Part shown: one piece after another, positions 16,239 through 45,919 of the stretch
Position numbering within the stretch: position 1 is the first letter of the stretch
How the letters are laid out: each line of letters begins with the position of its first letter
Origin: a virus
Taxonomy: Duplodnaviria; Heunggongvirae; Uroviricota; Caudoviricetes
Length of the DNA stretch: 64,000 nucleotides
Direction: 5' to 3' (one strand)
Virus record (IMG/VR): IMGVR_UViG_3300021979_000001
Span: 2,948-66,947 of that record
Program-made: the position numbers and the translations under genes
The notes under the pieces: model-generated
The model's database searches: none
What the model was told of the DNA's origin: nothing
What the model saw: only the letters and a program-made list of their open reading frames with translations

Positions 16239-16290
16239 AATATGTCACTCCAAACACAACAATAATAATTCAAAATACACATATTATATT

Positions 16291-16530: not shown

Positions 16531-16578
16531 TACGAGTTCCCACATGTAAATAACATAATCAAACAGTTAATATAATAT

Positions 16579-16839: not shown

Positions 16840-16901
16840 TATTAACATCCAATCAATTAAATAGATAAACCGTAATAATTATAATTATTTCTTACACTAA
16901 T

Positions 16902-17180: not shown

Positions 17181-17238
17181 ACTTATCACACTTGCAAAAA
17201 GTTGGATTAGTCATAAAATAAACACAATGGTGGCTGCA

Positions 17239-17484: not shown

Positions 17485-17533
17485 TTGACTTCGCCAAGTA
17501 AAAATGGATATATGGAGATAATCATTTCATTGT

Positions 17534-17728
17534 TCACTCTGCCATAGCACCATGCCCATAGCCATAACCACCATCAAACACGTTCCCATACCCATTACTA
17601 TCCCCATCCTCATACCCATCGCTAGAGTCAGACCCGTATCCATACCCGGTTCCATCACTATTGCCATATCGATAGCTATTATTATGTTGATCAACTGTGT
17701 AATATAGTAGTGTTATAGGTAGTTTCAT
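17534..17728 (-). CDS. Gly-X repeat peptide minigene
   Basis: Leader MKLPITLLYYTVDQHNN; 64 aa. Confidence 0.55.
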   Translation of the reverse strand: MKLPITLLYYTVDQHNNSYRYGNSDGTGYGYGSDSSDGYEDGDSNGYGNVFDGGYGYGHGAMAE

Positions 17729-19664: not shown

Positions 19665-19976
19665 GCGTATAAATTCCTAATGAAATGTCTGTTAGTGCCT
19701 GTTCGGGCAAACTGCTATACAGACCGACCAAAAAGTAAGGAAATATGGTTATGCTACACAGTAATACATCATCGTGGTGGTGATATATAACGTGACAAAT
19801 ACACTGACATTACCATTTTCCGGTGGTTAGAGGCGTTATTTGCCTCCGATGGGTCTCACCTTATTCTCGTTCATTTTTGCCGTCAACATAATTTTTTGAA
19901 GAAATCGCAATTTTACAAAAAAAAATCGGTATCCATATATTTCCCCCCGTGTTCGTGGATTATTCCGTATCGAAAA

Positions 19977-26297: not shown

Positions 26298-26870
26298 ATG
26301 GAAAAACAAATGTCTAATGCAAATCTTTTTGGTTCTAAACCCAGTGATCGCGTTGCTGTGTTTTTCGACGGGGCGAACCTGTTTGCCAGCACTCGGGCCT
26401 TGGACGTTCACTTGGATTATTCCAAGCTGACCGAAGCCCTGGGCACGGGATGCAACATGATGCGGATGTATTACTACACCGCCCTGCCGGATGGTGATGC
26501 TCAATGCGCGGTTCGTCCGCTTGTGGATTGGCTCGACTATAACGGCTATACCATGGTCACGAAGCCAACCAAGGAATTCACCGACTCCGCAACTGGTTTG
26601 CGGAAAATCAAAGGTAACATGGACATCGAAATTGCAATTGATGTGATGGAAATGGCACCGCACCTTGACCATGTGATCCTGTTTTCCGGTGATGGCGATT
26701 TCCGGCGTCTGGTTGAGGCGGTTCAACGCAAAGGGGTGCGCGTTACTGTTGTATCGACCGTCAAATCGAACCCATCGATGATTGCGGATGAACTTCGTCG
26801 CCAGGCCGACAAATTCGTCGAACTTGCGGACATCATGTCGTATGTCGTGCGGGATGTGCGGGAGAAATAA
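26298..26870 (+). CDS. NYN/LabA-like (DUF88) domain protein
   Basis: VAVFFDGANLF...NMDIEIAIDVM...VILFSGDGDFRRLVEAVQRKGVRVTVVS. GC content is well above the flanks. Confidence 0.75.
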   Translation: MEKQMSNANLFGSKPSDRVAVFFDGANLFASTRALDVHLDYSKLTEALGTGCNMMRMYYYTALPDGDAQCAVRPLVDWLDYNGYTMVTKPTKEFTDSATGLRKIKGNMDIEIAIDVMEMAPHLDHVILFSGDGDFRRLVEAVQRKGVRVTVVSTVKSNPSMIADELRRQADKFVELADIMSYVVRDVREK

Positions 26871-27048: not shown

Positions 27049-27771
27049 ATGAATACTTTATCGATAAATGAACTAAGAAATGATTTAAAAGAATCAACAA
27101 ATAATATGTCCTGGACCGTAAGTAATATTATCACCGATGATGGTCTTTTACTACCACCAACGTCCGATTCTAAAGAAATATCGAAGTTATTAGAGCGACA
27201 AGCGGAAATACATTTGAGCAAGATTGCGGATAAGTATGGGTATGTTTTTGAAACAAGTAGTAGACAAAATACATACCCGGACGGAACATTAACAAAATAT
27301 GATGCTGGCAGAATACTCCATAGAATAGCAATAGATGCAAAAAGCACGTTTGAAAAACCATCCATGAATTTGACACTTGGTAGCTACACATCATTTTTAT
27401 TGAACGACAATAAAAGCATTACATATCCATATTCGACATATGATGACCATTGGGTTATGATTTTTACATATCGTCGAACAGAGGATGGTTCTTATGATTC
27501 AGTCAGATGGTATTTAACTGAAAAAGCCCGCATCACCGGGTTGGTGGCGGGTAGCGGCAACACAAAAAATATAGGGAGTGTTCGTTTCAGAAAAGTAGAT
27601 GATTTAACATCAATTAATGGGCCATTTGCCCGTTTCAAAAACATGAAAGGGGCTTCTGATCACTATTGGCGCAACTATGATCGTTTGCGCAAAGAAATCA
27701 AAAGCCCTGGCGATTTGATAATGCACCCGGAATTTGTTCAATTCACAAATCTGGAACGTAGTAATTGTTGA
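27049..27771 (+). CDS. EcoRV-family type II restriction endonuclease (PD-(D/E)XK)
   Basis: Matches EcoRV as I recall it along its length: KIADKYGY, QNTYPDGTL, IAIDAKST, LTLGSYTSF, ITYPYSTYDDHWVMIFTYRR, AGSGNTKNIGSV, HYWRNYDR. Confidence 0.75.
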   Translation: MNTLSINELRNDLKESTNNMSWTVSNIITDDGLLLPPTSDSKEISKLLERQAEIHLSKIADKYGYVFETSSRQNTYPDGTLTKYDAGRILHRIAIDAKSTFEKPSMNLTLGSYTSFLLNDNKSITYPYSTYDDHWVMIFTYRRTEDGSYDSVRWYLTEKARITGLVAGSGNTKNIGSVRFRKVDDLTSINGPFARFKNMKGASDHYWRNYDRLRKEIKSPGDLIMHPEFVQFTNLERSNC

Positions 27772-28828
27772 TTTTGTGTTGTAAAGCTGGAATTTTTGAT
27801 GATATTCCTTCGGTGGAAAGAATAATCAATCGATCTGCGGTCACGTAACTTTCGCACTTTGCATTGGTAAATGTCCCTAATTCGTTCCCATATCCGATTA
27901 GGATACCGCAATTAAGATTTAAAATATTGTTTGCGGTTTGTTTCCAGTCAATAACCGTGCGGTTAATGGCAACAGAGATCACACTATCTCCTTTGGCCGT
28001 GAATAAATCTTCTATGATTTCTTCGGTTCCAGGCGCGACCATCGCCCGAACCGCCATTGCTGGATAACTGCGCATGGGACGAATAACCGATGTTGCACCG
28101 GCAGCAATGATACGTTTTCGATTATGATCTGATACGCATTCAGCGATGATGGGAACGGATGGGTTTTGTTCACGAACGTGGTATACCGTGGAGAACGTGA
28201 TTGAGTCATCATCATTGCTGCCACTAGGTGCGATAACAAAGATCGCACGGCATTTGGTCAAACCGACTTGTTCGGACATGCCAGGACTGTTGATGTTTCC
28301 ATGATTGAAAATTGTTCGATTGTCAAAATCGCACAGGTTGGTCGTCCATTGGTCAGTGAGGATATTAATTGCGATTTTATTATATTCTGGAATATCACGA
28401 ATTTCCCGGATGAATTCCTGAAAATATTTTACCGCATTTGGTCCATTCGGTGACCCGATAACTAAAATGTGATCGTTCAATTTCCAGTTCCATTTCCCGG
28501 TTTTTATTGCATTTGATCGAAATTCGCGCATATCTTGATAAATGTCAATCATTCTAGCAAAAATTGCCAATGCTGGAATAAACAATACCATAACGCTTAT
28601 TATTCGACCGATAGGGGTTGATGCGGACAAATCCCCATATCCAATTGTAGTGATACTGGTTGAAGCCAACCATAACGCATCACCGATGGTCATATTTTCA
28701 TATATGACCATCGTTGGAACAAATATCCCGATACATAGTAATAAAATTGCACCTAATTCAAAGAACTCGCGTTTTGTCGTCTTGTTTCGAATTAGTTGAC
28801 GATTGCGCCAAAAAAACAAAAAGTGCAT
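27743..28828 (-). CDS. 2TM potassium channel with C-terminal RCK/TrkA-N-like domain
   Basis: Selectivity filter TSITTIGYGD lies between two TM helices. It is followed by ILVIGSPNGPNAVKYFQEF, which looks Rossmann-like. Confidence 0.8.
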   Translation of the reverse strand: MHFLFFWRNRQLIRNKTTKREFFELGAILLLCIGIFVPTMVIYENMTIGDALWLASTSITTIGYGDLSASTPIGRIISVMVLFIPALAIFARMIDIYQDMREFRSNAIKTGKWNWKLNDHILVIGSPNGPNAVKYFQEFIREIRDIPEYNKIAINILTDQWTTNLCDFDNRTIFNHGNINSPGMSEQVGLTKCRAIFVIAPSGSNDDDSITFSTVYHVREQNPSVPIIAECVSDHNRKRIIAAGATSVIRPMRSYPAMAVRAMVAPGTEEIIEDLFTAKGDSVISVAINRTVIDWKQTANNILNLNCGILIGYGNELGTFTNAKCESYVTADRLIILSTEGISSKIPALQHKINNYYVPDL

Positions 28829-29784: not shown

Positions 29785-30141
29785 TTATTTCACGATTTGG
29801 TAATCGATGGTATTAGCCTCGGCAAGACTAATCCAAAAACGTTGTTTGATGATATGTTCCAATGGGGATGACATAACTCGGAATGTCACGGAATCATATT
29901 TTGGTAGATTATTCCGAATATAGATTCGATCAATCGTCAACGCGGTTTCTTGTGGTATAACCACATTCATGAAGGACGGGGTTTTCCTGTTTTCATAATA
30001 ATCATCCAGGATGTCCTCATATTTTGTTCCTGCAATTTTCGCGGAAAATTTCGCATTTCGGCTATCGACAAAATTAATTGAGCATGATAGCGGTTTAAGT
30101 AATAGTAACGTTGTGCGCAAAGGTGGGATGAATAGTTTCAT
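29785..30141 (-). CDS. hypothetical protein
   Basis: ORF 29785..30177; the internal ATG giving MKLFIPPL is preferred. Confidence 0.45.
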   Translation of the reverse strand: MKLFIPPLRTTLLLLKPLSCSINFVDSRNAKFSAKIAGTKYEDILDDYYENRKTPSFMNVVIPQETALTIDRIYIRNNLPKYDSVTFRVMSSPLEHIIKQRFWISLAEANTIDYQIVK

Positions 30142-30571
30142 ATGCCATCTCCATTGGTTTAAACAAGGATACACCAATCATCAACGATAATAGTGTAATA
30201 ATCGCCAAAATAAGGAATACAACAAAAATCAGACTGGAATTATCCCCGTGTGTTGCAAAATTTTCTTTCATAAACCCAAGGGAATACATAATAACTTCAT
30301 ATAAGAAGAACAGGCATAGCGCCCCAATAGCATATCGAACTGCCTGCAAAATCATCGGAGATAATGCGAGATTAACAATCAATATCCACTGAATTGCGGA
30401 ACCTAGTTGTGAGTCAATCATGTTCTCTATTGGAATATTCTGTTCTTTTGCTACATCAGTTAAAATTTGATTTATCTGATTAGACAATGTATCCGCATGT
30501 GCGATATTTGTTATTGCAAAAACACAAGCGGCAATTAGCAGAACCGACCCTATCGTATTTTTGAATGTCAT
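30095..30571 (-). CDS. Secreted or membrane protein with multiple TM segments
   Basis: Signal-like MTFKNTIGSVLLIAACVFAITNIAHA plus about 3 hydrophobic helices. Confidence 0.55.
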   Translation of the reverse strand: MTFKNTIGSVLLIAACVFAITNIAHADTLSNQINQILTDVAKEQNIPIENMIDSQLGSAIQWILIVNLALSPMILQAVRYAIGALCLFFLYEVIMYSLGFMKENFATHGDNSSLIFVVFLILAIITLLSLMIGVSLFKPMEMAYETIHPTFAHNVTIT

Positions 30572-30576
30572 TTCAC

Positions 30577-31209
30577 TTACGCCCAATACATAGCTGAAAT
30601 AGGGCGCAATTCATTTACACCTTCATCAGTCATCAATCCAATCTTTGTCATCCACCAACGAATGGCACCTGGAACGGCGGGTAACGTATTTGCTAAAAAG
30701 TCAGGGTCATTATAATCAAATATGACCGGTTTGTAATTTTTATCCGTTCGTGAAAGATTATAATAGGAAAACCCATGATCATGAACCCGACAAAACGAGT
30801 TGAAGTTATCATATTGTTTTGTGGTATTATCATATACCAGCATAGTATAATCTAGATCATTCGCATATCTAGTCCATTCTTTTTTTTCATTAGGATCGCT
30901 ATAAAATAAAATGTAGTCATCCCCAAAGACGTTCGATTCATCGCAAATGTAGTGAAATAAATCATCTCCGCTTTGTATTGTTCCTTTAAAGAAAATATGT
31001 TGATTATGTTGTTTCCTTATTTTTAAATGTTCTTCTTTGGTTATTTTGAACTCATGTTTGTAATATTTTATTTTGTTACAGACTTCGGAATGTAAATCAT
31101 AATAGTCGCTGTCTGATGCTACACAATCAGGAAAATTCAAATCCGCCAATCCCTTGAACTTAGTTACAGGCATTCCCCATCCTTGCACCACATGTAATCT
31201 ACTGCCCAT
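30577..31209 (-). CDS. hypothetical protein
   Basis: 210-aa ORF. Confidence 0.5.
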   Translation of the reverse strand: MGSRLHVVQGWGMPVTKFKGLADLNFPDCVASDSDYYDLHSEVCNKIKYYKHEFKITKEEHLKIRKQHNQHIFFKGTIQSGDDLFHYICDESNVFGDDYILFYSDPNEKKEWTRYANDLDYTMLVYDNTTKQYDNFNSFCRVHDHGFSYYNLSRTDKNYKPVIFDYNDPDFLANTLPAVPGAIRWWMTKIGLMTDEGVNELRPISAMYWA

Positions 31210-31235
31210 GATACTACTCCGTTATATATTGCTAT

Positions 31236-31273
31236 AAAAACACCCACCACATACATTATAATATGGTGGATGT
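31236..31273 (-). terminator. Rho-independent terminator after the SPFH gene
   Basis: On the minus strand: ACATCCACCAT..ATGTGGTGGGTGT followed by TTTTTAT. Confidence 0.5.
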
Positions 31274-31289
31274 TTAATTCCAATGATTT

Positions 31290-32687
31290 TTATTCGCCGG
31301 TGAATGGTTTCGACGAGTGACGGGTTGTCAGCTTATCGAGTGCCCCAAGGCTGGTTACAATGTCCAACGACGTTGGTGCCGCAACGGATGAACCACCACC
31401 ATAATAAATATCCGGCATCGACACTGTAATGTCTTTTAGATTTGGATAAATAATTTGGGCGGTATCGCGTGCCAATTCTGCCATATAAATATCTTTGGCA
31501 TCTTGTAACGCCTTGTATTTGGCACGGGCAACGTCGGCTTCGGCCAGGCCAGTTTCACGAATAGATTCTGCCTTGAATTTTGCGGCCTGGGCCGTCGCAT
31601 TTTGAATATCTTTATCCGCAACTGCCATTTCAAGTTCCTTCTGTTTTTTCAGAAGGGCAATTTGCTTTTCCTTGTTTTGTCGAACTTTTTCCAGTTCCGC
31701 AGTTTGCCGTTCCACTTCCACCTGCTGAACAGCCCGGATAATAGCCAATTCTTTTTCTTTTTGTGCTTTTTGCACATCCCGCGCCTTCTCAATTTCCATA
31801 TTGAGAGCGATGGTTTTTGCTTCGGTGCGAGCGGTATCTTGTTCCTGCAACGAAGTGATACGTTTTGCGACCAACAGCTTTTTATCCCGCAGCAACGTTG
31901 TCAACTGGGGATCGGGTTCGGGACGACCGATAGTAACCTGCCGAACTGAAATCCCATACAGTTCAAGCGGGTTTGAAATCCGCAATTCGGCCCCGGCAGC
32001 ATTTGTGGTGATCACGTTTTTCCAAACTAGTTGGTTTCGGCTTTCCAACTTGTTTGCATCGGAATTCTCCGAATTAACGGCAGCAAAGTCGGTTTGCTGG
32101 ACTTCAACTTGTTTCCGTGTGGTTTGATACAAACCATAGGTTAACTGATTTTCAAGTTTTACCTTGAAATCGTTTAGGCCCCCTTGGAAAAATTCTTCCC
32201 CGGTATATTGCGTCCCTGTGACCACCGTGACGTTCTTGGCATTTTTAACCATCAAAGAATCAATGAGGTTGTCTTTGCCACGAAACTCCGAATGCATCAG
32301 AAGAATTTTCTGAACATCAGATGACAATTTAAACCGGAAGGTGGCCGGAATATCTGCAATATAAGTATCAGCAAATTGCACTGATACTGGGTCAAGCTGC
32401 CGCGTTGACGACGCTTCTTCACTGGCATCTTGATTGCCGAATGATATGACCACTGCTTGTGGATATTCGTAGATGGTAGTAAAGAATGGGATTTTAGCAT
32501 GAACCCCAGGCTCGGTATATACGATCAACCGGCCCAAAAGGGTATCTTGCAGGACATAAGTGATGCCTGCTGCGGTGGTGAAAAATGATGAAAACCCGAT
32601 GATTAAGGCAAAAATGGCAAAAATGCCGCCAATAATCCACCGTTTGATAGATTGTAAAATCATGTCATGTTCTTCTGTTTGGTCCAT
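31290..32687 (-). CDS. SPFH/band-7 (prohibitin/flotillin-like) membrane protein
   Basis: N-terminal TM segment, PGVHAKIPFFTTIYEYP, and a long charged coiled-coil region. Confidence 0.6.
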   Translation of the reverse strand: MDQTEEHDMILQSIKRWIIGGIFAIFALIIGFSSFFTTAAGITYVLQDTLLGRLIVYTEPGVHAKIPFFTTIYEYPQAVVISFGNQDASEEASSTRQLDPVSVQFADTYIADIPATFRFKLSSDVQKILLMHSEFRGKDNLIDSLMVKNAKNVTVVTGTQYTGEEFFQGGLNDFKVKLENQLTYGLYQTTRKQVEVQQTDFAAVNSENSDANKLESRNQLVWKNVITTNAAGAELRISNPLELYGISVRQVTIGRPEPDPQLTTLLRDKKLLVAKRITSLQEQDTARTEAKTIALNMEIEKARDVQKAQKEKELAIIRAVQQVEVERQTAELEKVRQNKEKQIALLKKQKELEMAVADKDIQNATAQAAKFKAESIRETGLAEADVARAKYKALQDAKDIYMAELARDTAQIIYPNLKDITVSMPDIYYGGGSSVAAPTSLDIVTSLGALDKLTTRHSSKPFTGE

Positions 32688-32765
32688 CGCTCGATCTTCC
32701 TTATTTAATTATAAAAATCATGTCTGCTTGCGTATATCAAGTAACATACTAACTGTAAACAAAAA

Positions 32766-33560
32766 TTATCGTTCGTCATTAATAATTTTTGTCGCTTGAT
32801 TTTTCAAGGTGGTTCCGTCTTCGGCCAAGTTACCAAGTTTCTCGGTAGAACACGGATTGGTCAGGATATTCAGCAAACTGCCAGCACCGGCCCAGTTAAC
32901 CAGATCACTAACTGCACCATTGATGTAGTTTGAAATTTTATTGGTTATATCATTTATTTTATTGGAAATTTCAGATAGCGCATCCCCAATTGATTGTCCG
33001 AGTTCTGAAATAACTTCGGAAAATTTATTTGCAACGGTTGCCAGCATAGCTACGATTGCGGCCAGACCTTGCGCAACTGCATTTGCAACCTGTTCCAAAA
33101 TATTTTCAATAAATTCGCCGATATGCGCCAGGGTTGATGTGATTTTACTGGCAATATCATTTAAATCATCTAAAAACTCATTAAATGCCGAACATGGATC
33201 AAAACCACTTGTCGTTGCCGATTTCACCGAAGCATGGCTATTCATAATCGATAAATTCTTTGGTAATTCTGAAAAAACATTTACTTGTTGCATTTCCGCC
33301 GCATTAATAGATGATTGTATATTGGACACATCTAATTCAACCCCTTCGGCAATTGCAATATCTTCTGGTGTTGCTAATGGATCATTTTTAACCGCACTGA
33401 TCGCATCAGTAAGGCCACCACCTGTGGTGGGCAGCAATCTGTTAAAACTATATGTTAACGATTTCATTTGGTTTACGGGTGAAAATGCGGTTCCTGATTG
33501 AATATCAGAAAATACCCCAGCAATATCGGTTGTTGTTGGAACAAAATCGACAATACTCAT
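32766..33560 (-). CDS. hypothetical protein
   Basis: 264-aa ORF, predicted helical and rich in A, I and N. Confidence 0.5.
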   Translation of the reverse strand: MSIVDFVPTTTDIAGVFSDIQSGTAFSPVNQMKSLTYSFNRLLPTTGGGLTDAISAVKNDPLATPEDIAIAEGVELDVSNIQSSINAAEMQQVNVFSELPKNLSIMNSHASVKSATTSGFDPCSAFNEFLDDLNDIASKITSTLAHIGEFIENILEQVANAVAQGLAAIVAMLATVANKFSEVISELGQSIGDALSEISNKINDITNKISNYINGAVSDLVNWAGAGSLLNILTNPCSTEKLGNLAEDGTTLKNQATKIINDER

Positions 33561-33570
33561 AAAAAATCCT

Positions 33571-33840
33571 TTAACTACGATTTACGTTTGGTGATCCCGT
33601 TAAAATTACCGCACCACATGCACAAACTGCCGCCACGTGGGCTGTTTCTTGTCCTTCGACACTTACATTGGGATGCACCGCAATAATTTGATTAATGCCG
33701 TGATAGGGAATCGGACATGAGACCAGATCACCGACACGGGCAGTTGAAATACCATTTGTGGTATGTTTGACCGCGCCGGTGATAATGGTTGCGCCATGGT
33801 CGCTGGTATCCCCTATGCGTGATACCGAAAACCCTGCCAT
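33571..33840 (-). CDS. PAAR-domain protein (spike tip)
   Basis: MAGFSVSRIGDTSDHGATIITGAVKHTTNGISTARVGDLVSCPIPYHG. Uses the internal ATG of track ORF 33571..33972. Confidence 0.6.
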   Translation of the reverse strand: MAGFSVSRIGDTSDHGATIITGAVKHTTNGISTARVGDLVSCPIPYHGINQIIAVHPNVSVEGQETAHVAAVCACGAVILTGSPNVNRS

Positions 33841-33844
33841 TTTT

Positions 33845-34150
33845 TTATGCCAGGCGCAGACTTGATGTCTGCTCCGAATAAAAATGGGACATATTGGTAT
33901 TTGCCTGCACTGGCATAATTGCAATACCTGTTTTGTTAATTTCAATAGATGATGATGGGTCACATCCCACAAGAACAGGCTCTAACTGAATGCTTTGCTG
34001 GTTATCGATGATGACGCGAACGAGCGAAAACGGTTTCTGCAATGTAATGGAATCAGTCGAGGTTTTTAATAACCGCCCAATGATTTCTTCACCAGAAGTC
34101 AGTTTTGCGATTACTGTTGAATTTATTTCGGGTTTCTTTTCGATAAGCAT
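33845..34150 (-). CDS. hypothetical protein
   Basis: 101-aa ORF ending 4 nt before the PAAR start. Confidence 0.5.
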   Translation of the reverse strand: MLIEKKPEINSTVIAKLTSGEEIIGRLLKTSTDSITLQKPFSLVRVIIDNQQSIQLEPVLVGCDPSSSIEINKTGIAIMPVQANTNMSHFYSEQTSSLRLA

Positions 34151-34213
34151 GGGTTGTCCTTAAAATTTGATTGAACCCCGACTATATCCCATCAATAGAG
34201 AAAGAACCAAAAT

Positions 34214-34438
34214 TTATTTTGGTTGTTGATAATAAAATCGCAACACACGCCCGTTGAGAACCAAAACTTTCTTTTTTATCAGAACCTTCACATCGCGGTT
34301 TTGATTGCCACCATAGTTGTTTACATTACAAAACCCCAAGCCAACCAGACGCATAATCGCCCCACGTCGATACTTGCCAACACTGGTATGAACTATCTTA
34401 AATAAGTTATGGGGTTCATCAGGGTATGATTTGCACAT
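34214..34438 (-). CDS. hypothetical small protein
   Basis: 74-aa ORF only. Confidence 0.3.
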   Translation of the reverse strand: MCKSYPDEPHNLFKIVHTSVGKYRRGAIMRLVGLGFCNVNNYGGNQNRDVKVLIKKKVLVLNGRVLRFYYQQPK

Positions 34439-34440
34439 CG

Positions 34441-34878
34441 CTATAACACCAACCGCGCCATAACGGATTCAGGCTTGCTTTCAAACCAAATACGATAATA
34501 CGTCCGGTTCGTTTTGTGTTGCGCGACTTCTTTACATAAAAATTTATACTGACATAGATTGTGCAATTTAGTGTTTAATTCATTCATCGTATATGTATCG
34601 TGGTTTTCATTAATCGTTACCGAATGACACAACCAACGTGGTTTTATGTAGTTTTTATTGATCACCGCAAAGATCATAGAACATAACAAATATCCGGTGA
34701 AATAACCTACCGTCATTACAAACCAGATTATATCAATATAATCTAAAAACCATACGATTCCAGTCATTCCTGCAAAAAGACCAATACTGATTACACTCAA
34801 TTCAGGAATAATCCGCTGGATTTTAATTACATCTATAATCAAAACATAACTCCTTATTGCGCCATTGATAAAAATCAA
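34441..34878 (-). CDS. 2-TM membrane protein, paralog family member 5
   Basis: Two N-terminal TM helices, PRWLCH, and C-terminal YRIWFESKPESVMARL. Confidence 0.5.
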   Translation of the reverse strand: MIFINGAIRSYVLIIDVIKIQRIIPELSVISIGLFAGMTGIVWFLDYIDIIWFVMTVGYFTGYLLCSMIFAVINKNYIKPRWLCHSVTINENHDTYTMNELNTKLHNLCQYKFLCKEVAQHKTNRTYYRIWFESKPESVMARLVL

Positions 34879-35371
34879 TGGGTTGTGGTAATTGATGATC
34901 GCATATTAGCGAACATAGTAAAGCATCCTCGTATTTCATAAAAATCACATTAATGTGTTTATAATACAGCATAATTATCTCACGGGTATTACTGTCTATT
35001 TCGCATATGTGTTCCCAGCGTGCCATAACTCGATATTTAGATGAATATTCTAGTTGACAAATTCTAGAAATCAATTGATGTGTTTCATTATAATTAACGT
35101 TGCCAATATTAATCAAATATGCAGTGCGTGGTAACCAATGTTTATGGTATTTTGTATTATGAACTTTGCGTAAAATCAATATTTGCACATAGAATAATGA
35201 ACACAAGGAAATGAATAATATTAATGCCCCGGTTGATATATCCGGGCTTTCTGGTAAAATTGAAATTGACAAATATACACATGCAACCACGCCATATATT
35301 ATATACATGGCGGCGAAAAATAACCCACTACGATTTGGGAAATATATTTCTTGAAACTGTTGTATCGTCAT
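34823..35371 (-). CDS. 2-TM membrane protein, paralog family member 4
   Basis: QQFQEIYFP, two TM helices, KHWLPRTAY, and FMKYEDALLCSL. Confidence 0.55.
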   Translation of the reverse strand: MTIQQFQEIYFPNRSGLFFAAMYIIYGVVACVYLSISILPESPDISTGALILFISLCSLFYVQILILRKVHNTKYHKHWLPRTAYLINIGNVNYNETHQLISRICQLEYSSKYRVMARWEHICEIDSNTREIIMLYYKHINVIFMKYEDALLCSLICDHQLPQPIDFYQWRNKELCFDYRCN

Positions 35372-35373
35372 TA

Positions 35374-35946
35374 TTATGCAGTCATATCCAGTATAGTTAA
35401 ATGCCGTTGGTTATGTTTAATTTTACGTATATCCCCATTCCACGTCAATGCGCATAATGTCGCGTCATTAATCGACGCAAAAAGAACGATGCTTTTACCA
35501 TCTAATGTCGTCAACACCGAATGCATAAAATGACTTCGATAGCAATAATTCATCGTTGAATTGGCAGCAAGCCAATCTTGACCTTCGGGTGTCAATATTG
35601 GCAATTCCGATATTACCGCATATATGTTCCAGGGCATCCATTGTCGGTATGATAACTGGGTATCCTCCATGGCACTACGGATGGTGATAAACGTAAATGC
35701 GAACACCACGAACCAAACAATACCAGCAAAAATGTTGCTTAATAATATCACTATGTCAATTGTTGCCATACTGATTGCAAACGTGGCGAAATACACGTTG
35801 GGAATCAAAATCTGTAGCCATATAATCAGGGTAGATTTCATGTTTATGTTTTCCACAAATGGTATTTTGCTGGGTTTTAGGGTTTTGGGTGGGGGGATCA
35901 AAAACTGGTTATATTGTTCGATGCCGGATGTATTTTGCGTTCCCAT
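35374..35946 (-). CDS. 2-TM membrane protein, paralog family member 3
   Basis: EQYNQFLIP, two TM helices, RQWMPWNIY, and LFASINDATLCALTWNG. Confidence 0.55.
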   Translation of the reverse strand: MGTQNTSGIEQYNQFLIPPPKTLKPSKIPFVENINMKSTLIIWLQILIPNVYFATFAISMATIDIVILLSNIFAGIVWFVVFAFTFITIRSAMEDTQLSYRQWMPWNIYAVISELPILTPEGQDWLAANSTMNYCYRSHFMHSVLTTLDGKSIVLFASINDATLCALTWNGDIRKIKHNQRHLTILDMTA

Positions 35947-36443
35947 TCAAACTCGAAACCAATTATAACGATGTTTTTGCGTTTTTTATATGTTGCTATT
36001 TGGCCGAATCTTAACGCAAATATGGTAGCATCATTATGGTTTGCAAACTGAACATGAAAATCTTCCCCATTAGCCATCCCTAATTTATAGTTATCAAGGC
36101 ATTCGGCATCACACCATTCATTAATTTCTTTTCTTAATAGATGATTTGGCAAATTAAACACTGCCTCGTAAACGTAATGAGGCAACCAGTTCTTTAACTT
36201 GGTTGATTTGTGTTCAACATTGATCAAAACCCAGATATATGAAAAAATAACGATCAATAGTGAAATGATATTAATCACCAATGAAATCAAGATTGATTTA
36301 TCATTGATGTTGTTATTGTTTTTAAACAACAGATTGCATATTAGTAGACAGTCACCTACCATCAAAAAATAATACAAATATGAAAATTTATTGAATGGAA
36401 AAAATGCCTGGAACCATTGTTTCGTTGTCATGATATTTTTCAC
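35898..36443 (-). CDS. 2-TM membrane protein, paralog family member 2
   Basis: KQWFQAFFP, two TM helices, KNWLPHYVY, and QFANHNDATIFALRFG. Confidence 0.55.
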   Translation of the reverse strand: MKNIMTTKQWFQAFFPFNKFSYLYYFLMVGDCLLICNLLFKNNNNINDKSILISLVINIISLLIVIFSYIWVLINVEHKSTKLKNWLPHYVYEAVFNLPNHLLRKEINEWCDAECLDNYKLGMANGEDFHVQFANHNDATIFALRFGQIATYKKRKNIVIIGFEFEWERKIHPASNNITSF

Positions 36444-36470
36444 TCCGATGAAATTATTACGGGGGTTATA

Positions 36471-36965
36471 TCAACTAAACTGGTATATAATATTATAGTC
36501 AACAATATCTTTTCGCGTAACGGTTTCCATATGGTCGCCGAACGCAGAAGCATATCGGGTAGCATCGTTTGAACTACCAATCATAAAATGCACCTCATAC
36601 CAGTAATCGGAGTCAAAATCATTTAAACTGTTTTTAATCATATTAGCGGTAAACGTTCCATTGCAGAATTCTTCGCACCATTCGAAACGTTGGATCAATG
36701 TGCCATAAATCGTGTCACGGTCACCCCGCAATATCACTTTGAACACATAGAACCGGTGCGGGAGCCAGTGCATCATGCTCTTTCCAAAATTGTCATATTT
36801 TCGGGTTTGGTAGGAAAGAAAGAACATGATTGGCATGAACAACCATACTAAGGTTGTGGTAACGGAGATAATATATCCACCGGCACAAAACAATAAAAGA
36901 TCGGTTACTACCACATTCATTGTTGGGTATGATAACGATAACATTTCACGTAATTTCATGTCCAA
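36471..36965 (-). CDS. 2-TM membrane protein, paralog family member 1
   Basis: Two TM helices, MHWLPHRFY, and IGSSNDATRYASAFG. Confidence 0.55.
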   Translation of the reverse strand: MDMKLREMLSLSYPTMNVVVTDLLLFCAGGYIISVTTTLVWLFMPIMFFLSYQTRKYDNFGKSMMHWLPHRFYVFKVILRGDRDTIYGTLIQRFEWCEEFCNGTFTANMIKNSLNDFDSDYWYEVHFMIGSSNDATRYASAFGDHMETVTRKDIVDYNIIYQFS

Positions 36966-37163
36966 CCCCCAAGTGTATTAAGATACGTGTTATATCACAT
37001 ATCACAGTTTTTTTGATAATTATAGAGAAAAAACCGTTATTCTGAAAAAAATCGACAACGATAATGATAAATAAATATAAGAACAGTGCCCAAGTGGCAC
37101 ATTTTCCGAGAAATCGGAAAGAAGATAAATAAACATACACACCCACTATGTGAGGAAAAAAAT

Positions 37164-37520
37164 ATGGTAGAAAAAGTTAACGGGCACTTTGTCCCAGGTG
37201 AAACACTGTCCAGCGACAATGAATTTTTCGAAATTCGCACTTCGGTTAATATTCTGGTGCATTCCGGTTCGACTGGTAGTGATACAACACAGAAAGCACT
37301 TGATAAACTCGTTGAAGTGATTTCGCTTCGTGGTCAGCCAGTTATTGCTGGTTCCCCTTATCTTGATAGCGAAGACAGCAAATATGTGTTTAAGTTTACA
37401 ACTGAACATGCTGGTTCGTGGGATGCGACACCGACATTGCTTGAAAGCATTGTTGAACATGCTGGTTCACACGGCTTTGCTGCAAACAACACAACTGTTT
37501 CATCTTCTGACCTGATCTAA
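37164..37520 (+). CDS. hypothetical protein
   Basis: GAGGA SD 7 nt upstream of the ATG and a strong terminator downstream; 118 aa. Confidence 0.6.
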   Translation: MVEKVNGHFVPGETLSSDNEFFEIRTSVNILVHSGSTGSDTTQKALDKLVEVISLRGQPVIAGSPYLDSEDSKYVFKFTTEHAGSWDATPTLLESIVEHAGSHGFAANNTTVSSSDLI

Positions 37521-37554
37521 TATTATCTGTTTCAGTGTCAATAAACTAAGTTTA

Positions 37555-37588
37555 AAGTGGTCCGACATAATAGTTGGACCACTTTTTT
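37555..37588 (+). terminator. Rho-independent terminator
   Basis: AAGTGGTCCGAC-ATAATA-GTTGGACCACTT followed by T6. Confidence 0.75.
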
Positions 37589-37632
37589 GTATTTGCATAA
37601 ATAATTAATATTGGTAAACGAGGACAACCATA

Positions 37633-37794
37633 ATGGAATTAGCCGAATTGTTTTTTGAATCCGCATCTAGTCAAAAGACGGTCTGGAAAAAACGTGGTGA
37701 AACTTTAACCAAATCAGTAAAAAAACAGGATAGTGATACTATTGATATTACATCATATGTGAAATTTGATTTACAGGATAACAATAATGAGTAA
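37633..37794 (+). CDS. hypothetical small protein (53 aa)
   Basis: GAGGA SD 8 nt upstream. Hand-translated as MELAELFFESASSQKTVWKKRGE. Its end overlaps the next gene's start. Confidence 0.4.
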   Translation: MELAELFFESASSQKTVWKKRGETLTKSVKKQDSDTIDITSYVKFDLQDNNNE

Positions 37795-38713
37795 AGATTA
37801 TACAAAAGATGAAAATTTTATTAAAACGTTATCAAATATTGTAAATGGCGATGCCGATAAAATTCAAGATGTATTGTCTAAAATGTCAGTTAATAGTCTT
37901 ATGGAACTGATTGATTCAGTGATAGTTAATGATCCAAAATCGGCGCGAGAACTATATCTTGATGCCACAAACAATCTTAAAACCGAAAGTATTAATGTTA
38001 TGCGTAGCAAAAAGCCGATTACTCAAAATAACTCACACAAAAAAACGTCAAAACGTAGCATGAATGAAAGTATTTTAGGCATGTCTAGCATGCCAAATCT
38101 TGATCGTTTGCGCAAATTGTCCGGTATGCGTGAAAGTGATTATGAAACTGATTTAGATGGTGACGTTGGTAATGATTTCGATAGTGACACTATTGATGCC
38201 ACTCCGATCCCAATGTCGGATAATAAACCATCTTTGCCGCCTGTTGATGATTATGAAAATACTGATTTTGATGATATGTTCCCGGTTGAAGAACCAAGTG
38301 CATTTGTGGATACCAGCAATGTCATTAGCGACGTTGAACAACTGATGGATCAACTTGAACAGAAAATTACATCAATTCCAGTTGGTGATTATAAAGCGGT
38401 CGTATCTAGATTGCGAGACATTCTTAATACTGCGGTTAATGTTGGTCGTGATAATCTTGTCGAAAATCGTAAATCACTCAAAGATGCCATGCACGAAAAT
38501 GATGACTCAATGTCAATTGGTAAAACGCGAACGGACGCGGTTAAATCTCTCCAAACGCGCATGGGTGATAAACCAGGTGATCGCCAGAAGGCAGAAAAAG
38601 CATTTGATAAACTGCGCAAAGATGGTGGTATAAGCATGAAAAATGGTGAATTTTCCATGAAAACCATGGGCGATGATGAATTTGACGCAGAAACATATAT
38701 TAACGATAAATAA
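37787..38713 (+). CDS. hypothetical acidic protein
   Basis: ORF 37766..38713; the first ATG gives MSKDYTKDE. Confidence 0.55.
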   Translation: MSKDYTKDENFIKTLSNIVNGDADKIQDVLSKMSVNSLMELIDSVIVNDPKSARELYLDATNNLKTESINVMRSKKPITQNNSHKKTSKRSMNESILGMSSMPNLDRLRKLSGMRESDYETDLDGDVGNDFDSDTIDATPIPMSDNKPSLPPVDDYENTDFDDMFPVEEPSAFVDTSNVISDVEQLMDQLEQKITSIPVGDYKAVVSRLRDILNTAVNVGRDNLVENRKSLKDAMHENDDSMSIGKTRTDAVKSLQTRMGDKPGDRQKAEKAFDKLRKDGGISMKNGEFSMKTMGDDEFDAETYINDK

Positions 38714-38744
38714 ATAAATAAAAAGAATACAATCGAATAAACTT

Positions 38745-38776
38745 AGTGGTGGCCGTTTTGGTCACCACTTTTTTTT
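38745..38776 (+). terminator. Rho-independent terminator
   Basis: AGTGGTGGCC-GTTTT-GGTCACCACT followed by T8. Confidence 0.75.
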
Positions 38777-38860
38777 GTTCTAATATGATTTCATTGATGA
38801 TTTAACCGGCAACTAATCCTGTTGCCCATCTGAATTACTGGGGGACAGACAATAAGTGAC

Positions 38861-39154
38861 TTACCCCGTATAAACACGTTCGCCCGTCTTAAAGTTGGTG
38901 TAGAATGGTTTCGTATTGTCGGCAATCAAGGATTTAACCTGATCCGCACAAAAATCACCAATTGGACGATTTGCAACTGACACCTTACGTAACCCTACCG
39001 CGAACACATCTATAATTGTGCCATCACTAAGGATTTCTACGTTATAACAACGTTCCTTGGATACATGCCCCATCTCACTATAAACCACCGCAAAACCACC
39101 AGTGGCATAAAATTTCGGGCGATATTCGGTGACGATGATATTTGGCGTCTTCAT
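38861..39154 (-). CDS. hypothetical protein
   Basis: ORF 38861..39226; the internal ATG giving MKTPNIIVTEY is preferred. Confidence 0.45.
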   Translation of the reverse strand: MKTPNIIVTEYRPKFYATGGFAVVYSEMGHVSKERCYNVEILSDGTIIDVFAVGLRKVSVANRPIGDFCADQVKSLIADNTKPFYTNFKTGERVYTG

Positions 39155-39405
39155 AATGTTACCCTTTCGTAAATCAGCATTTGTAATATACACCCACAAT
39201 ATAAAATAGTCAACCAAAATATACATAAAAATATATAAACTAACAAAACATAACGCTAAAATAAAAGGTCAAGTAAACATATACACCCTGGTCGCGTATA
39301 TAACTGATATGTGGGGATCAACCATAAAGATATTGCTTTTTATGTGCGGTATGATGGATGATTGTCATTCGATCATAAATAAGTAAACCGTGTAATATTG
39401 GTATT

Positions 39406-39636
39406 ATGACAATGAGATATTTTGAAATCGCTAGTGGTATACGCATTGCGGTATCTAAAGATGAACAAAATTTAATCGATATGGCGTCGAATGGCCCAGT
39501 TCGGGAAGATGATCTTGATGCGCATCAAGTGGAATTGGCACATCGCCTTACATCCCGCGATATTTTGGTTCGTGATGAAACGGACAATGCAACGACATTT
39601 AAACTCAATTCAATGGATGACGTTTGGAGATTTTGA
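39406..39636 (+). CDS. hypothetical protein
   Basis: 76-aa ORF whose stop lies 1 nt before the next ATG. Confidence 0.5.
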   Translation: MTMRYFEIASGIRIAVSKDEQNLIDMASNGPVREDDLDAHQVELAHRLTSRDILVRDETDNATTFKLNSMDDVWRF

Positions 39637-39637
39637 C

Positions 39638-40240
39638 ATGAACGACAATGAAATGGAACGATTCTTGCGGATCATCAATGGGGATATGTCGGTAAATACA
39701 TCCGAGGCAAAACCCACCAACCCCATTGGTGAAAATGATCCCGCATATATGCGTAATGATATGGTGCGTCTCATGTCTGGTCTTCGCGATGGTGTCCAGG
39801 AATTAAAGCAAGACGCGAAAACGGATCGCACCTTGCGCGAAGCCATCATCACGAAGCAAACAGATGCCGGTGTAAAAATTGGCGAATATGAAATCATTGT
39901 GCATGATGACGATGGACAAAAAAGTTTTGATGTCATGGAAAATGACACGTATTCGCTTATTGCGGCAGAAATGTCATTGTATGAAAGTGCCCATGCGATT
40001 GTTCGATTATTGAATTCTGGATTTTCAAAAAACTCGTCCAAAATAAACGAAATTGTATCACTTGATGAACAATATGGCCGGGGCCTGGCAGATGCCGTTA
40101 TTTGTCGGCATCGAGCAAAAAAGTTAAATGAAACCGGCCAATATGACCGAGCGGAAATTATGGAAATCCGATATGACTCCGCCAAAGTCCGGGCTTTAAC
40201 TGCACAAAATACTTTAGCACGATTAATCGAACGCATGTAA
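39638..40240 (+). CDS. hypothetical protein
   Basis: ATG at 39638 gives MNDNEMERFL. The longer track ORF 39491.. overlaps the upstream gene. Confidence 0.5.
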   Translation: MNDNEMERFLRIINGDMSVNTSEAKPTNPIGENDPAYMRNDMVRLMSGLRDGVQELKQDAKTDRTLREAIITKQTDAGVKIGEYEIIVHDDDGQKSFDVMENDTYSLIAAEMSLYESAHAIVRLLNSGFSKNSSKINEIVSLDEQYGRGLADAVICRHRAKKLNETGQYDRAEIMEIRYDSAKVRALTAQNTLARLIERM

Positions 40241-43900: not shown

Positions 43901-43954
43901 AGCTAAATAACTGTCCCAAATAATAGAAATAGAATGGTAATTAAGGATATATCT

Positions 43955-45673
43955 ATGCAAGTTAAGAAACGAAATGGTTCAATGGAGCCAGTAAATCTCG
44001 ATAAAATTGTTAAATCCATTGAAGCGGTAGCAACGGGCCTGGACGGGGTTGATGTTTTCCGAATCGCGCAGAAAACCGTTGGTGGACTAGTTCATGGTGT
44101 TACCACACGTGAACTCGATATGTTTTCAATTCGAAACGCGGCTGGGTTGATTATCGAAGACCCCGTATATTCCAAAGTCGCGGCCAGAATCATGCATAAC
44201 GTCATTTCCAAAGAAGTATCAGGACAAGATATTCAATCTTTTTCACAATCAATCAGTCTTGGTTACGAAATGGGGTTGATTGATGAACAAACATATAATC
44301 TGGTTATGAATAATAAACGCAAGTTAAATGCGTCTATTAAAACCGAACGTAGTGATTTATTTGAATTTCACGGAATCATCACTGTTTATGATAGATACCT
44401 GTTGAAGCATCGTGATTTGATGGCTGGCTCTGGGACGGATCGTCGTCGGGCAGTAATTGAAACCCCGCAATATTTCTTCATGCGTGTCGCTTGTGGTTTG
44501 GCGAATGATGCGAAAGAAGCAGTTGAACTGTATAATCTGGTATCATCGCTTGAATATATGACATCAACACCGACATTGTTTAATTCCGGGACATCACATA
44601 CGCAAATGTCGTCCTGCTATCTGCTTGATAGCCCGAACGATGATTTGCAGGATATTTATAAACGATATTCGGATATTGCCTCCCTATCAAAATTTGCGGG
44701 TGGCATTGGTGTGTCTGCTAGTCGCATTCGGTCTAAAGGTTCCCCCATTAAGGGCACAAACGGTCGTTCAAACGGTATCATTCCATGGTTACACACCCTG
44801 TCTGGATCAGTTGGGGCAGTCAACCAGGGCGGCAAGCGCAAAGGTGCTGCATGTGTTTATCTTGAACCACACCATGCTGATGTAATGCAGTTTTTGGAAT
44901 TGCGTGACCAGACGGGTGAAAAAGAACGTCGTGCCTATAACCTTAACATTGCAAATTGGGTATCTGATTTGTTTATGTCACGCGTCAAGAATGATGAAAT
45001 TTGGTCATTGTTTGATCCGGCTGATGTTCCAGAACTGGTTGATCTTTATGGTGATGAATATACCAAACGGTATCTTGAACTTGAAGAACAGGGAAAATTT
45101 GTTGAACAGATTAGCGCACGAAAAATTTATGCGCGAATGATGCGCACCCTGGCAGAAACCGGTAATGGTTGGATGTGCTTTAAAGATACATCCAATAATC
45201 GCGGGAATCAGGTGGGCGAGGGACGCTCGATCAAGCTGTCAAACCTTTGTTTTGCCCCAGATACCATCATTCATGCAAAACTGGGTGATAAGGTAATGGA
45301 CATTGAAATCAAGGCATTAAGTGATTATTTCAGCGTTGGTATTCCGGTTCAGGTTTGGTCGTTCAACGAAGAAACACACGAAATGGAATGGAAAAATGTG
45401 GTGAATGCCGGATTGACCAATCCTGATGCGGAATTGATGGAAATCGAAACACCATCCGGTAAAATAATTCGTTGCACGGAAGATCACCCCATGCTGACTG
45501 AACGCGGGTGGGTTAATGCTGGCGATCTAACCGAAGACGACTCTCTTGTTGAAGTTGATACCACGCAAGAAGTGCATAAATTCGAACATTGGAATAAAGA
45601 TAAACACATGGTAACCGAAATTATCATGGATCATCTTTATTCCAAAAATAAAAAAACCAGCGTCATTATGTAA
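43955..45673 (+). CDS. nrdA: Ribonucleotide reductase class Ia alpha subunit, N-terminal fragment fused to an N-intein
   Basis: GGGIGVSASRIRSKGSPIKGTNGRSNG, then ...KLSNL followed by CFAPDT (intein block A) and TEDH (block B). A stop lies at 45671-45673. The alternative start is at 43934. Confidence 0.85.
   Translation: MQVKKRNGSMEPVNLDKIVKSIEAVATGLDGVDVFRIAQKTVGGLVHGVTTRELDMFSIRNAAGLIIEDPVYSKVAARIMHNVISKEVSGQDIQSFSQSISLGYEMGLIDEQTYNLVMNNKRKLNASIKTERSDLFEFHGIITVYDRYLLKHRDLMAGSGTDRRRAVIETPQYFFMRVACGLANDAKEAVELYNLVSSLEYMTSTPTLFNSGTSHTQMSSCYLLDSPNDDLQDIYKRYSDIASLSKFAGGIGVSASRIRSKGSPIKGTNGRSNGIIPWLHTLSGSVGAVNQGGKRKGAACVYLEPHHADVMQFLELRDQTGEKERRAYNLNIANWVSDLFMSRVKNDEIWSLFDPADVPELVDLYGDEYTKRYLELEEQGKFVEQISARKIYARMMRTLAETGNGWMCFKDTSNNRGNQVGEGRSIKLSNLCFAPDTIIHAKLGDKVMDIEIKALSDYFSVGIPVQVWSFNEETHEMEWKNVVNAGLTNPDAELMEIETPSGKIIRCTEDHPMLTERGWVNAGDLTEDDSLVEVDTTQEVHKFEHWNKDKHMVTEIIMDHLYSKNKKTSVIM
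45248..45670 (+). other. Split intein, N-terminal half (IntN, 141 aa including about 40 aa of tail)
   Basis: It begins at the Cys codon directly after SNL. The extein motif SNLCTEI is interrupted at this point. Confidence 0.75.
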
Positions 45674-45817
45674 GTATTGTGGTAAAAATCCGGTAGGTCG
45701 TAATAAAACATCATATCGAAAATGTTGCGACCTGCCGGAATTTAAATGAAATATACAACTATGAAGTTAAATGTGCAAATGATGTTTCATTTGAACATAT
45801 ATGAAAGGCTAAAATAA

Positions 45818-45919
45818 ATGGCATTAAAAATTCGTCGCACCGGAGAAAGAAGTCCGGTATATGATTTGCATGTTGCAGATAATCACACGTTCGTAGCGGA
45901 TGGTCATATTGTCCATAAT
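45818..45919 (+). other. Split intein, C-terminal half (IntC, 34 aa)
   Basis: MALKIRRTGERSPVYDLHVADNHTFVADGHIVHN followed by the +1 Cys (CTEILEV). It resembles DnaE-type IntC in length and in its VYD..V...H.F.A..G.I..N pattern. Confidence 0.75.

Follow-up and report, generated by a model that had tools for sequence, protein, structure and literature searches.

Five consecutive small genes on the minus strand of a phage genome of approximately 457 kb were described in an earlier note on this DNA as tandem paralogs of a membrane protein with two transmembrane (TM) helices, for which superinfection exclusion, immunity or receptor masking was proposed. Two questions are raised by this locus: whether the five genes, hereafter called E to A in the order in which they are read, form one protein family, and what such a family would do in the infected cell. 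The whole stretch of DNA that was analysed, 64,000 nucleotides in length, is referred to as the window.

Gene layout and flanking regions

The five consecutive minus-strand ORFs lie where they had been placed earlier, and with their likely start codons they encode 133–190 amino acids (Table 1) rather than 145–190. Gene boundaries were read from the sequence and agree with independent gene calls on the public contigs which carry the array genes (L001 and L002), both 100 % identical to the window. Identical products were called there for E (162 aa) and A (133 aa), and the products of D, B and C (190 aa) are labelled P0002, P0003 and P0004, respectively. Shine-Dalgarno sequences are present for E, D and A, and for gene C the long start is favoured because the N-terminal motif is conserved.

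Table 1 Features of the array and its flanks, in window coordinates
Feature	Position	Strand	Description
Gene E	36471-36959	-	162 aa; first in the leftward unit; ATG 7 nt after GGGGG
Gene D	35898-36431	-	177 aa; ATG after GGAG; family hub
Gene C	35374-35946	-	190 aa; 49 nt at its start shared with the 3' end of D
Gene B	34823-35371	-	182 aa; start 2 nt past the C stop codon
Gene A	34441-34842	-	133 aa; TTG 7 nt after AAGGAG
74-aa ORF	34214-34438	-	start 2 nt past the A stop codon; without TM helix
Second 14-mer copy, GGTTCTTTCTCTAT	34195-34208	-	in the 63-nt gap from the 74-aa ORF to the conserved 101-aa gene
Divergent intergenic region	36960-37163		204 nt; E leftward, 118-aa gene (37164-37520) rightward

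Overlaps of about 50 nt had been noted for several of the genes. This is accurate for D and C (49 nt), whereas E and D are separated by 39 nt and C and B by 2 nt. The overlap of B with A is 20 nt from the start supported by a Shine-Dalgarno sequence and 56 nt for the maximal ORF, and the junction between A and the 74-aa ORF is again 2 nt. The array genes appear to be co-transcribed and translationally coupled. The 74-aa ORF, which is a gene call on the public contigs too, had no family matches in the databases scanned, PADLOC and NCBIfam among them; it probably closes the transcription unit of the array and does not belong to the two-TM family. The gene for a PAAR tail-tip protein and other conserved genes come after the array on the same strand.

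The E-side intergenic region contains a sigma-70-like -35/-10 pair (TATAAT) at 37048-37019 on the minus strand; the sigma-70 promoter scan found 26 such sites against 21.8 expected by shuffling, which is not above expectation. The 14-mer GGTTTTTTCTCTAT lies within the same 204 nt at 37035-37022, minus strand. The next transcription unit (the 101-aa gene, the PAAR gene and onward) may start at its second copy (Table 1), which is no more than suggestive, as the pattern was derived post hoc from the two copies, its sole matches in the 64-kb window.

Similarity among the genes of the array

Judged by their amino acid sequences, B, C, D and E are true paralogs whose similarity is beyond chance. Pairwise alignment, which had been suggested as a check, gave significant similarity of D to each of the other three and none for gene A. 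In BLASTP comparisons the E-values were 4e-8 for D and C, 1.6e-7 for D and E, and 5.5e-5 for D and B. In a phmmer search of the 552 stop-to-stop ORFs in the window with D as the query, the top non-self matches were C (6e-6), E (1.3e-4) and B (9e-4). Profiles built with one member left out ranked the omitted member first among the non-members each time, at 0.019 for B, 0.009 for C, 1e-8 for D and 9e-5 for E.

The four proteins share one layout: the N-terminal motif Q-x-h-h-P, spanning 10 residues, is followed by a hairpin of hydrophobic helices, then by the juxtamembrane motif W-L/M-P-x3-Y and finally by a soluble domain of 100–115 aa with a conserved H and a (N/E)DA helix cap. Gene E has a compressed TM hairpin (approximately residues 16–50), followed by HWLPHRFY and a soluble domain with SSNDATRYAS. 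The protein from gene D begins with KQWFQAFFP and continues with two TM helices and NWLPHYVY; it also carries FANHNDATIFAL. Gene C has an N-terminal EQYNQFLIP, a Pro/Lys-rich insert, two TM helices, QWMPWNIY and FASINDATLCAL. In B the corresponding elements are QQFQEIYFP at the N-terminus, two TM helices, HWLPRTAY and FMKYEDALLCSL.

The juxtamembrane motif described earlier, written as [HNQ]W[LM]P...Y, is present only in B–E, four of the 552 window ORFs, with 0.02 expected after residue shuffling. The C-terminal motif is also real in B–E, but each of the gaps originally given for it was one residue too long; the corrected form is [FI]...[NE]DA[TL]..[AS][LS]. Nor does this motif form the end of the proteins, as had been stated, since 20–40 further residues come after it. 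Strong divergence of the duplicates was borne out, the mean identity among B–E being 20–24 %, without DNA-level repeats or outside relatives. Because the key motifs have been kept despite this low identity, long-term purifying selection has probably acted on B–E. Relative synonymous codon usage correlated with that of reference genes at r = 0.79, whereas out-of-frame controls gave 0.71–0.78; the measure does not discriminate, and therefore no claim of foreign origin is made.

The architecture that all five genes were thought to share applies to B–E, whereas gene A has only the two-TM layout and partial motifs. Against the B–E profile A scored 5.5 bits, a value reached by 6 of 500 shuffles, and ranked 33rd of the 552 window ORFs. 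It had no phmmer match to any of B–E, and its hhalign alignment to the WLPH motif was confined to RWLCHSV, at a probability of 0.65 %. Remnants of the motifs occur in the correct order, namely QRIIP, two hydrophobic helices, RWLCH and FESKPESVMARL (F..K.ES....L), but the P and Y of WLP...Y and the H and NDA residues are absent, and the protein ends just past the helix which bears the DA motif in B–E, so that its soluble domain is truncated. Gene A is a probable degenerate or truncated fifth copy on this sequence comparison, or else an unrelated two-TM protein.

Decay could be taken further, with some or all copies, A in particular, making no functional protein. In addition to the state of gene A, the non-conserved C-terminal tails of D and B, which extend into the next gene, are in keeping with this. 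However, all five ORFs (133–190 aa) are intact in DNA of 32–40 % G+C, in which stop codons are frequent, E, D and A have their Shine-Dalgarno sequences, and the motifs retained in B–E imply purifying selection. It is extremely unlikely that some or all of the copies are non-functional duplicates.

Predicted topology and fold

Hydropathy analysis gave two hydrophobic helices per protein, in agreement with the two TM helices ascribed to each earlier. Lysine and arginine residues are concentrated at the N-terminus and after the second TM helix, and the inter-helix loop of 0–10 residues has no such cluster. The topology predicted from hydropathy and the positive-inside rule only is N-in/C-in, by which the soluble domain would be cytoplasmic and 0–10 residues would extend into the periplasm. 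Receptor masking, one of the roles first proposed, is disfavoured, as the predicted topology exposes almost nothing to the periplasm.

Class II holins, such as S21 of phage 21, are likewise encoded by phages and have two TM helices in an N-in/C-in arrangement, and the small size of the array proteins and the basic stretch after their second TM helix would suit class II-like holins or antiholins with a part in lysis timing. However, class II holins are 70–100 aa long, end in a short charged tail and are encoded beside the endolysin gene, whereas the array proteins have a conserved globular domain of approximately 100 aa and are encoded in five copies. The array is also some 14 kb from the sole peptidoglycan hydrolase candidate detected, a Bax/glucosaminidase-like gene encoded on the opposite strand (19896-20882, plus), and no holin family in Pfam, PHROGs or NCBIfam was matched. 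A holin role, very unlikely on these grounds, was rejected.

The predicted topology also bears on whether the proteins could confer self-immunity to the 53 small Gly-X repeat peptides of the phage itself (window 48-17728), in the manner of microcin or class II bacteriocin immunity. Immunity to membrane-active peptides is usually conferred by small polytopic membrane proteins, and the window holds both this very extensive tandem array, made up of small leader-plus-(Gly-X)n genes, and a radical-SAM/SPASM-like enzyme at 21579-22667. However, secretion and toxicity of the Gly-X proteins are assumed in this reading, 17 kb containing many unrelated genes separate the two arrays, and the databases scanned gave no homology to known immunity families. 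With the minimal periplasmic exposure predicted for the two-TM proteins, self-immunity is highly improbable.

The AlphaFold model of full-length D, with helices at residues 18–40 and 48–79, was poor (pLDDT 48.9). The soluble domain of E was modelled with a pLDDT of 69.6 and a pTM of 0.61 in the order beta-alpha-beta-beta-alpha-beta. This moderate-confidence result, from one of five models based on a 5-sequence alignment, the other four having pLDDT values of 48–53, suggests that the soluble domain may adopt a small, generic ferredoxin-like fold. Foldseek comparison of the E domain model with BFVD and the PDB gave no match at E ≤ 1e-3; ACT-like and PII-like regulatory domains were among the fold matches, none of them at that threshold. 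Ferredoxin-like folds are usually dimerising modules or modules which bind ligands or partners. If the model is correct, membrane proteins with a cytoplasmic ferredoxin-like or ACT-like domain, for example the C-terminal domain of MgtC, may be among the closest known systems.

Membrane-anchored proteins with a small alpha/beta domain predicted to face the cytoplasm could also be membrane scaffolds or regulatory subunits, which would hold factors of the phage or the host at the membrane or regulate them and have no conflict function. Candidate partners are the phage's own K+ channel, its SPFH/Band-7 protein, and phage DNA or replication proteins (cf. phi29 p16.7). The same minus-strand cluster contains the SPFH/Band-7 gene (31290-32687) and an Ion_trans_2+RCK K+ channel gene (27743-28828), and the ACT-like and PII-like domains among the fold matches may point in the same direction. 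Four genes (the 74-aa ORF, the 101-aa gene, the PAAR gene and a 264-aa gene) lie between the SPFH gene and the array. Against this reading, related phages retain the SPFH gene (approximately 51 % identity) without the array, five strongly diverged copies would be unusual for a stoichiometric partner, and Pfam gave no match either to NfeD or to another family of known SPFH partners. An NfeD-like role was rejected on the first and last of these points and on the four genes that separate the SPFH gene from the array, and a scaffolding or regulatory function in general is considered unlikely.

Relatives, genomic setting and possible role

Relatives of the array proteins were sought in several collections. 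In a word-indexed search of 5.8e9 clusters the B–E profile returned self matches only, and gene A likewise found only itself in the word-indexed cluster search. An exhaustive HMMER profile search of 1.84e9 (1.84 billion) protein representatives returned only the four query genes. Nothing significant was found in Pfam, PHROGs, NCBIfam or PADLOC, with the full proteins or with the soluble domains alone, or in a profile search of PDB sequences; the single PADLOC match was a stray one of gene E to REase_II (E-value 0.019, 11 bits). Sub-threshold stray matches to Tmpp129, PGG, ExcA and pannexin covered TM segments. Two leads were discarded: DUF7832 was matched by gene E only, with 15–16 bits against a cutoff of 27, the other paralogs having no match, and phrog_36412 was a weak match, again of E only and not common to the other paralogs. 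Comparison of window positions 30000-40000 with 50,697 phage records by megablast gave no match, and nothing specific was found in the literature on tandem membrane paralogs of jumbo phages. At the level of sequence, B–E are an orphan family with no relatives outside their own genome in the databases searched.

Profile searches of six-frame translations of 58 loci detected members only on contigs identical to the window. At approximately 25 related viral loci, nrdA-nrdB-glutaredoxin directly precedes the homologue of the 101-aa gene, and the two-TM array is absent. Because relatives carry nrdA-nrdB-glutaredoxin at the same position, the array is probably a lineage-specific insertion. With the neighbouring 315-aa gene as the query, no viral loci were returned. 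Head-to-tail paralogs without outside relatives at synteny breakpoints, the so-called genomic accordion, are common in jumbo phages and giant viruses, and lineage-specific tandem multigene families are usually linked to host interaction. The array shares the accordion pattern, a term which describes a pattern and not a mechanism. The public contigs, all identical to the window, show no expansion or contraction polymorphism.

The reading preferred here, with a probability of roughly 0.35, is that of a lineage-specific, tandemly duplicated and diverged inner-membrane family, comprising four members and the look-alike A, with an accessory and perhaps conflict-related role. Such a family would lie outside the core gene set and would supply binding modules tethered to the host inner membrane and active on its cytoplasmic side during infection; the diverged copies might each have their own partner. 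A conflict function would be the most plausible task, the DNA entry or the ejection-protein conduits of competing phages being blocked as by P22 SieA or T4 Imm; alternatively, a membrane-associated host factor could be neutralised.

[quoted passage not shown] The array proteins, with their predicted topology, resemble SieA in that they are of similar size, would be located in the membrane and have diverged rapidly around a motif on the cytoplasmic side. They differ in the number of TM helices, of which SieA is predicted to have three, or four in some types, instead of two, and in copy number, SieA being encoded by one gene of temperate phages instead of by a set of tandem copies. No sequence similarity to SieA was detectable in Pfam, PHROGs or the large protein searches. 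T4 Imm, which is small and comes from a large lytic phage, also has two predicted TM helices and blocks DNA entry at the inner membrane. It is approximately 83 aa long, has no globular soluble domain and is encoded by a single gene, whereas the array adds a soluble domain and multiple copies. Neither Pfam nor PHROGs gave a match to Imm or Imm-type models at E ≤ 1, apart from stray TM matches.

By analogy with these proteins, an inner-membrane role in superinfection exclusion or of an immunity type, as proposed in the earlier note, is possible. The exclusion proteins that are known are encoded by single genes and not by five-copy arrays, which counts against exclusion. That the array is a membrane battery of four to five specificity variants of one tethered, cytoplasmic ferredoxin-like module, each directed against the entry machinery of a different competitor phage or a different host membrane-associated defence, or conferring Gly-X self-immunity, and would represent a new conflict family or mechanism, is quite unlikely.

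As it stands, the main outcome of the analysis is a clearly delimited orphan protein family, and of its conserved motifs Q-x-h-h-P, WLP...Y and H...(N/E)DA are possible guides for mutagenesis. The array would mark a hypervariable insertion point in the otherwise conserved nrd-PAAR neighbourhood of related large phages. If an exclusion or counter-defence role is true, it would be a new orphan case of membrane-level conflict genes diversified by tandem duplication in very large phages, and, in the case of exclusion, an unusual multi-copy, multi-specificity exclusion set.

Four paralogous genes and a fifth look-alike

The predicted proteins of genes B, C, D and E, members of an array of five consecutive minus-strand genes at 34441-36965, are true paralogs as judged from sequence similarity. 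The family centres on D, with BLASTP E-values of 4e-8 to C, 1.6e-7 to E and 5.5e-5 to B, and when D was compared with every one of the 552 stop-to-stop ORFs in the window, its top three non-self matches were C, E and B (6e-6, 1.3e-4 and 9e-4). In leave-one-out tests with three-sequence profiles the omitted B, C, D or E was always the best non-member match. The motif [HNQ]W[LM]P...Y was restricted to these four among the window ORFs (0.02 expected in shuffled sets), and its combination with a downstream [NE]DA[TL] again selected exactly B-E. The strong divergence described in the earlier note is borne out, with mean identities of about 20 % in the N-terminus and hairpin and about 24 % in the juxtamembrane and soluble part, and with no DNA-level repeat left between the array copies. 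Because the conserved motifs survive at 20-24 % identity, they argue for a function under purifying selection. That the array consists of decaying copies is given hardly any credence.

The earlier note had counted five paralogs, of which B-E stand, whereas gene A is not significantly related. It scored 5.5 bits against the B-E profile, a value equalled by 6 of 500 shuffles, ranked 33rd of the 552 window ORFs and had an hhalign probability of 0.65%; phmmer gave no match between gene A and B-E. Gene A has the B-E layout and weak forms of all three motifs (QRIIP, RWLCH and FESKPESVMARL), and its soluble part, of only 72 amino acids, stops right after the helix equivalent to the DA-motif helix of B-E. 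It is probably a degenerate family copy, with membership unproven.

In sequence terms the B-E family is an orphan. Its profile, run against 5.8 billion protein clusters in a word-indexed search, retrieved E, D and B alone; against 1.84 billion representatives, searched exhaustively with HMMER, it retrieved E, D, B and C alone. Gene A, in a word-indexed search of its own, matched nothing but itself. Neither the full proteins nor the soluble domains alone had significant matches in Pfam, PHROGs, NCBIfam, PADLOC or PDB sequences, and membership tests against Imm, SieA, holins, NfeD and the PADLOC models were negative.

Membrane topology and predicted fold

Two hydrophobic stretches, each 18-27 residues long, are present in every protein, in line with the two transmembrane helices noted earlier; in E the hairpin is tighter, with roughly 33 hydrophobic residues interrupted by GG/TTT. 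Between the helices lie 0-10 residues, few if any of them basic, and K/R residues are concentrated in the first 10-39 residues and immediately beyond the second helix, e.g. RKVHNTKYHKHW in B. Since K/R thus flank the hairpin on both sides, the positive-inside rule predicts an N-in/C-in topology with a cytoplasmic soluble domain.

Modelled at full length with AlphaFold, D gave a poor result (pLDDT 48.9), in which a helical hairpin (residues 18-40 and 48-79) was nevertheless visible. For the soluble domain of E, five models were built from a five-sequence alignment; the top one had pLDDT 69.6 and pTM 0.61, the other four pLDDT 48-53. The top model has a beta-alpha-beta-beta-alpha-beta topology, in which WLPH directly precedes strand 1, strand 3 carries the conserved H and helix 2 is capped by NDA. 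The ferredoxin-like fold class is a tentative candidate for this domain.

Genomic setting

Gene starts were assigned from sequence (table below), and the resulting product lengths of E, D, C, B and A were matched by independent gene calls on public contigs. Overlaps of about 50 nt, reported earlier for several genes, hold for D/C (49 nt), whereas B/A overlap by just 20 nt and C and B do not overlap. A 74-aa ORF begins 2 nt beyond gene A. Such tight packing makes it likely that the array is co-transcribed as one unit.

Features of the two-transmembrane array and its surroundings (window positions)
Feature	Position	Strand	Remarks
Gene E	ATG at 36959	minus	after GGGGG; 162 aa
Gene D	ATG at 36431	minus	after GGAG; 177 aa
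Gene C	ATG at 35946	minus	190 aa
Gene B	ATG at 35371	minus	2 nt past C stop codon; 182 aa
Gene A	TTG at 34842	minus	7 nt after AAGGAG; 133 aa
101-aa gene, phrog_527	33571-34150 region	minus	conserved; downstream of array
PAAR protein		minus	downstream of array
264-aa DUF7217-like protein		minus	downstream of array
SPFH/Band-7 protein, phrog_11908	31290-32687	minus	465 aa; downstream of array
Potassium-channel-like protein	27743-28828	minus	Ion_trans_2 pore and RCK/TrkA_N domains; further downstream
Divergent intergenic region	36960-37163		204 nt
GGTTYTTTCTCTAT, two copies	34195-34208; 37022-37035	minus	intergenic
Gly-X array	48-17728	minus	53 tandem small ORFs
Glucosaminidase-like hydrolase	19896-20882	plus	Bax/FlgJ-type
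Radical-SAM protein	21579-22667	minus
NYN-domain protein	26673-26870	plus	small; converted from public locus L057
EcoRV-like endonuclease, PF09233	27049-27771	plus	converted from public locus L057
Ribonucleotide reductase alpha subunit	43934-47092	plus	two ORFs, 579 and 424 aa

Homologues of the 101-aa gene were found in 52 viral contigs. In all of the approximately 25 loci with enough upstream sequence (drawn from L005-L056, most only distantly related), nrdA-nrdB-glutaredoxin directly preceded this gene, and in none did a two-transmembrane array. In the window the nrd genes are on the opposite strand (43.9-47.1 kb) and the array occupies the junction instead; the array therefore sits on a synteny breakpoint, beside the divergent intergenic region. 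Downstream, PAAR follows the 101-aa gene also in the viral loci L003 and L005, and the SPFH/Band-7 protein has about 51 % identity to proteins of two other viral contigs (L003, 9926-11371; L004, 452-1755).

Just two copies of the 14-mer GGTTYTTTCTCTAT are present in the 64-kb window, one upstream of gene E and one upstream of the 101-aa gene. Although picked post hoc, it could act as a common promoter or operator element, and weakly hints at two similarly controlled transcription units, one from E to the 74-aa ORF and the other from the 101-aa gene onward.

The source of the window is a very large phage; the array genes are also found on a public contig of 457,165 bp. The window sequence recurs with 100 % identity in smaller contigs of JGI metagenome 3300021977 and run SRR7168050, and megablast of window positions 30000-40000 against 50,697 deposited phage genomes gave no match at the nucleotide level.

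The Gly-X array looks far more unusual than the two-transmembrane array. Its ORFs (64-144 aa, spaced by about 250-330 bp) combine a leader of some 20 aa, conserved in several variant forms, e.g. MNTSIELYYCVNSHLTNDDF, MKPYINQSFYINIY, MVTIYNLYYSIPLITNDETYG and MNLPINQYFCIHADDHE, with a (Gly-X)n body (X = Y, D, H, N, S or F; 20-36 % Gly). This array accounts for the extreme GC skew (-0.4 to -0.5) of the first 17.7 kb, the absence of longer ORFs (none exceeds 148 aa) and the 115 tandem-repeat rows of CCATAA/CCATCA-type units. Pfam gave just one sub-threshold low-complexity match (TrAA12), and the array may represent a very large multigene family, encoding either repeat proteins or peptide precursors. 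The radical-SAM gene, about 4 kb away, matches SPASM/twitch-type peptide and cofactor maturases only weakly, with scores under the cutoff; RiPP-like modification of the Gly-X peptides by its product is speculative. Self-immunity to these peptides is a very improbable role for the two-transmembrane proteins.

The two alpha-subunit ORFs and their Intein_splicing matches suggest an intein-containing or split nrdA. The EcoRV-like and NYN genes, called on a public contig, lie on the opposite strand inside a leftward cluster. The glucosaminidase-like peptidoglycan hydrolase, which matches NF007681 at E = 5.7e-29 but falls short of the cutoff of that model, is a candidate endolysin or virion hydrolase.

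Possible functions of the array

Of the roles considered in the earlier note (superinfection exclusion, immunity or receptor masking), receptor masking is disfavoured because the predicted topology exposes almost nothing to the periplasm. Lysis timing is quite improbable, since the structured domain is large, there are five copies and the sole hydrolase candidate lies far off. A role as scaffold or regulator of membrane proteins encoded by the phage itself, or of its DNA, is unlikely, too.

We tentatively propose, with a probability of roughly one in three (0.35), that the array encodes accessory membrane-tethered binding modules for phage-phage or phage-host conflict. The proteins would act like inner-membrane exclusion proteins, and would contact their partners within the membrane or at its cytoplasmic face. 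SieA of P22 offers a useful comparison in size, location, divergence and motif conservation, being an inner membrane protein of 162-164 aa whose sequence types are <30 % identical and share one conserved cytoplasmic motif (PMC10883804). Lineage-specific tandem families of small membrane proteins at variable spots in very large phages are an already familiar phenomenon.
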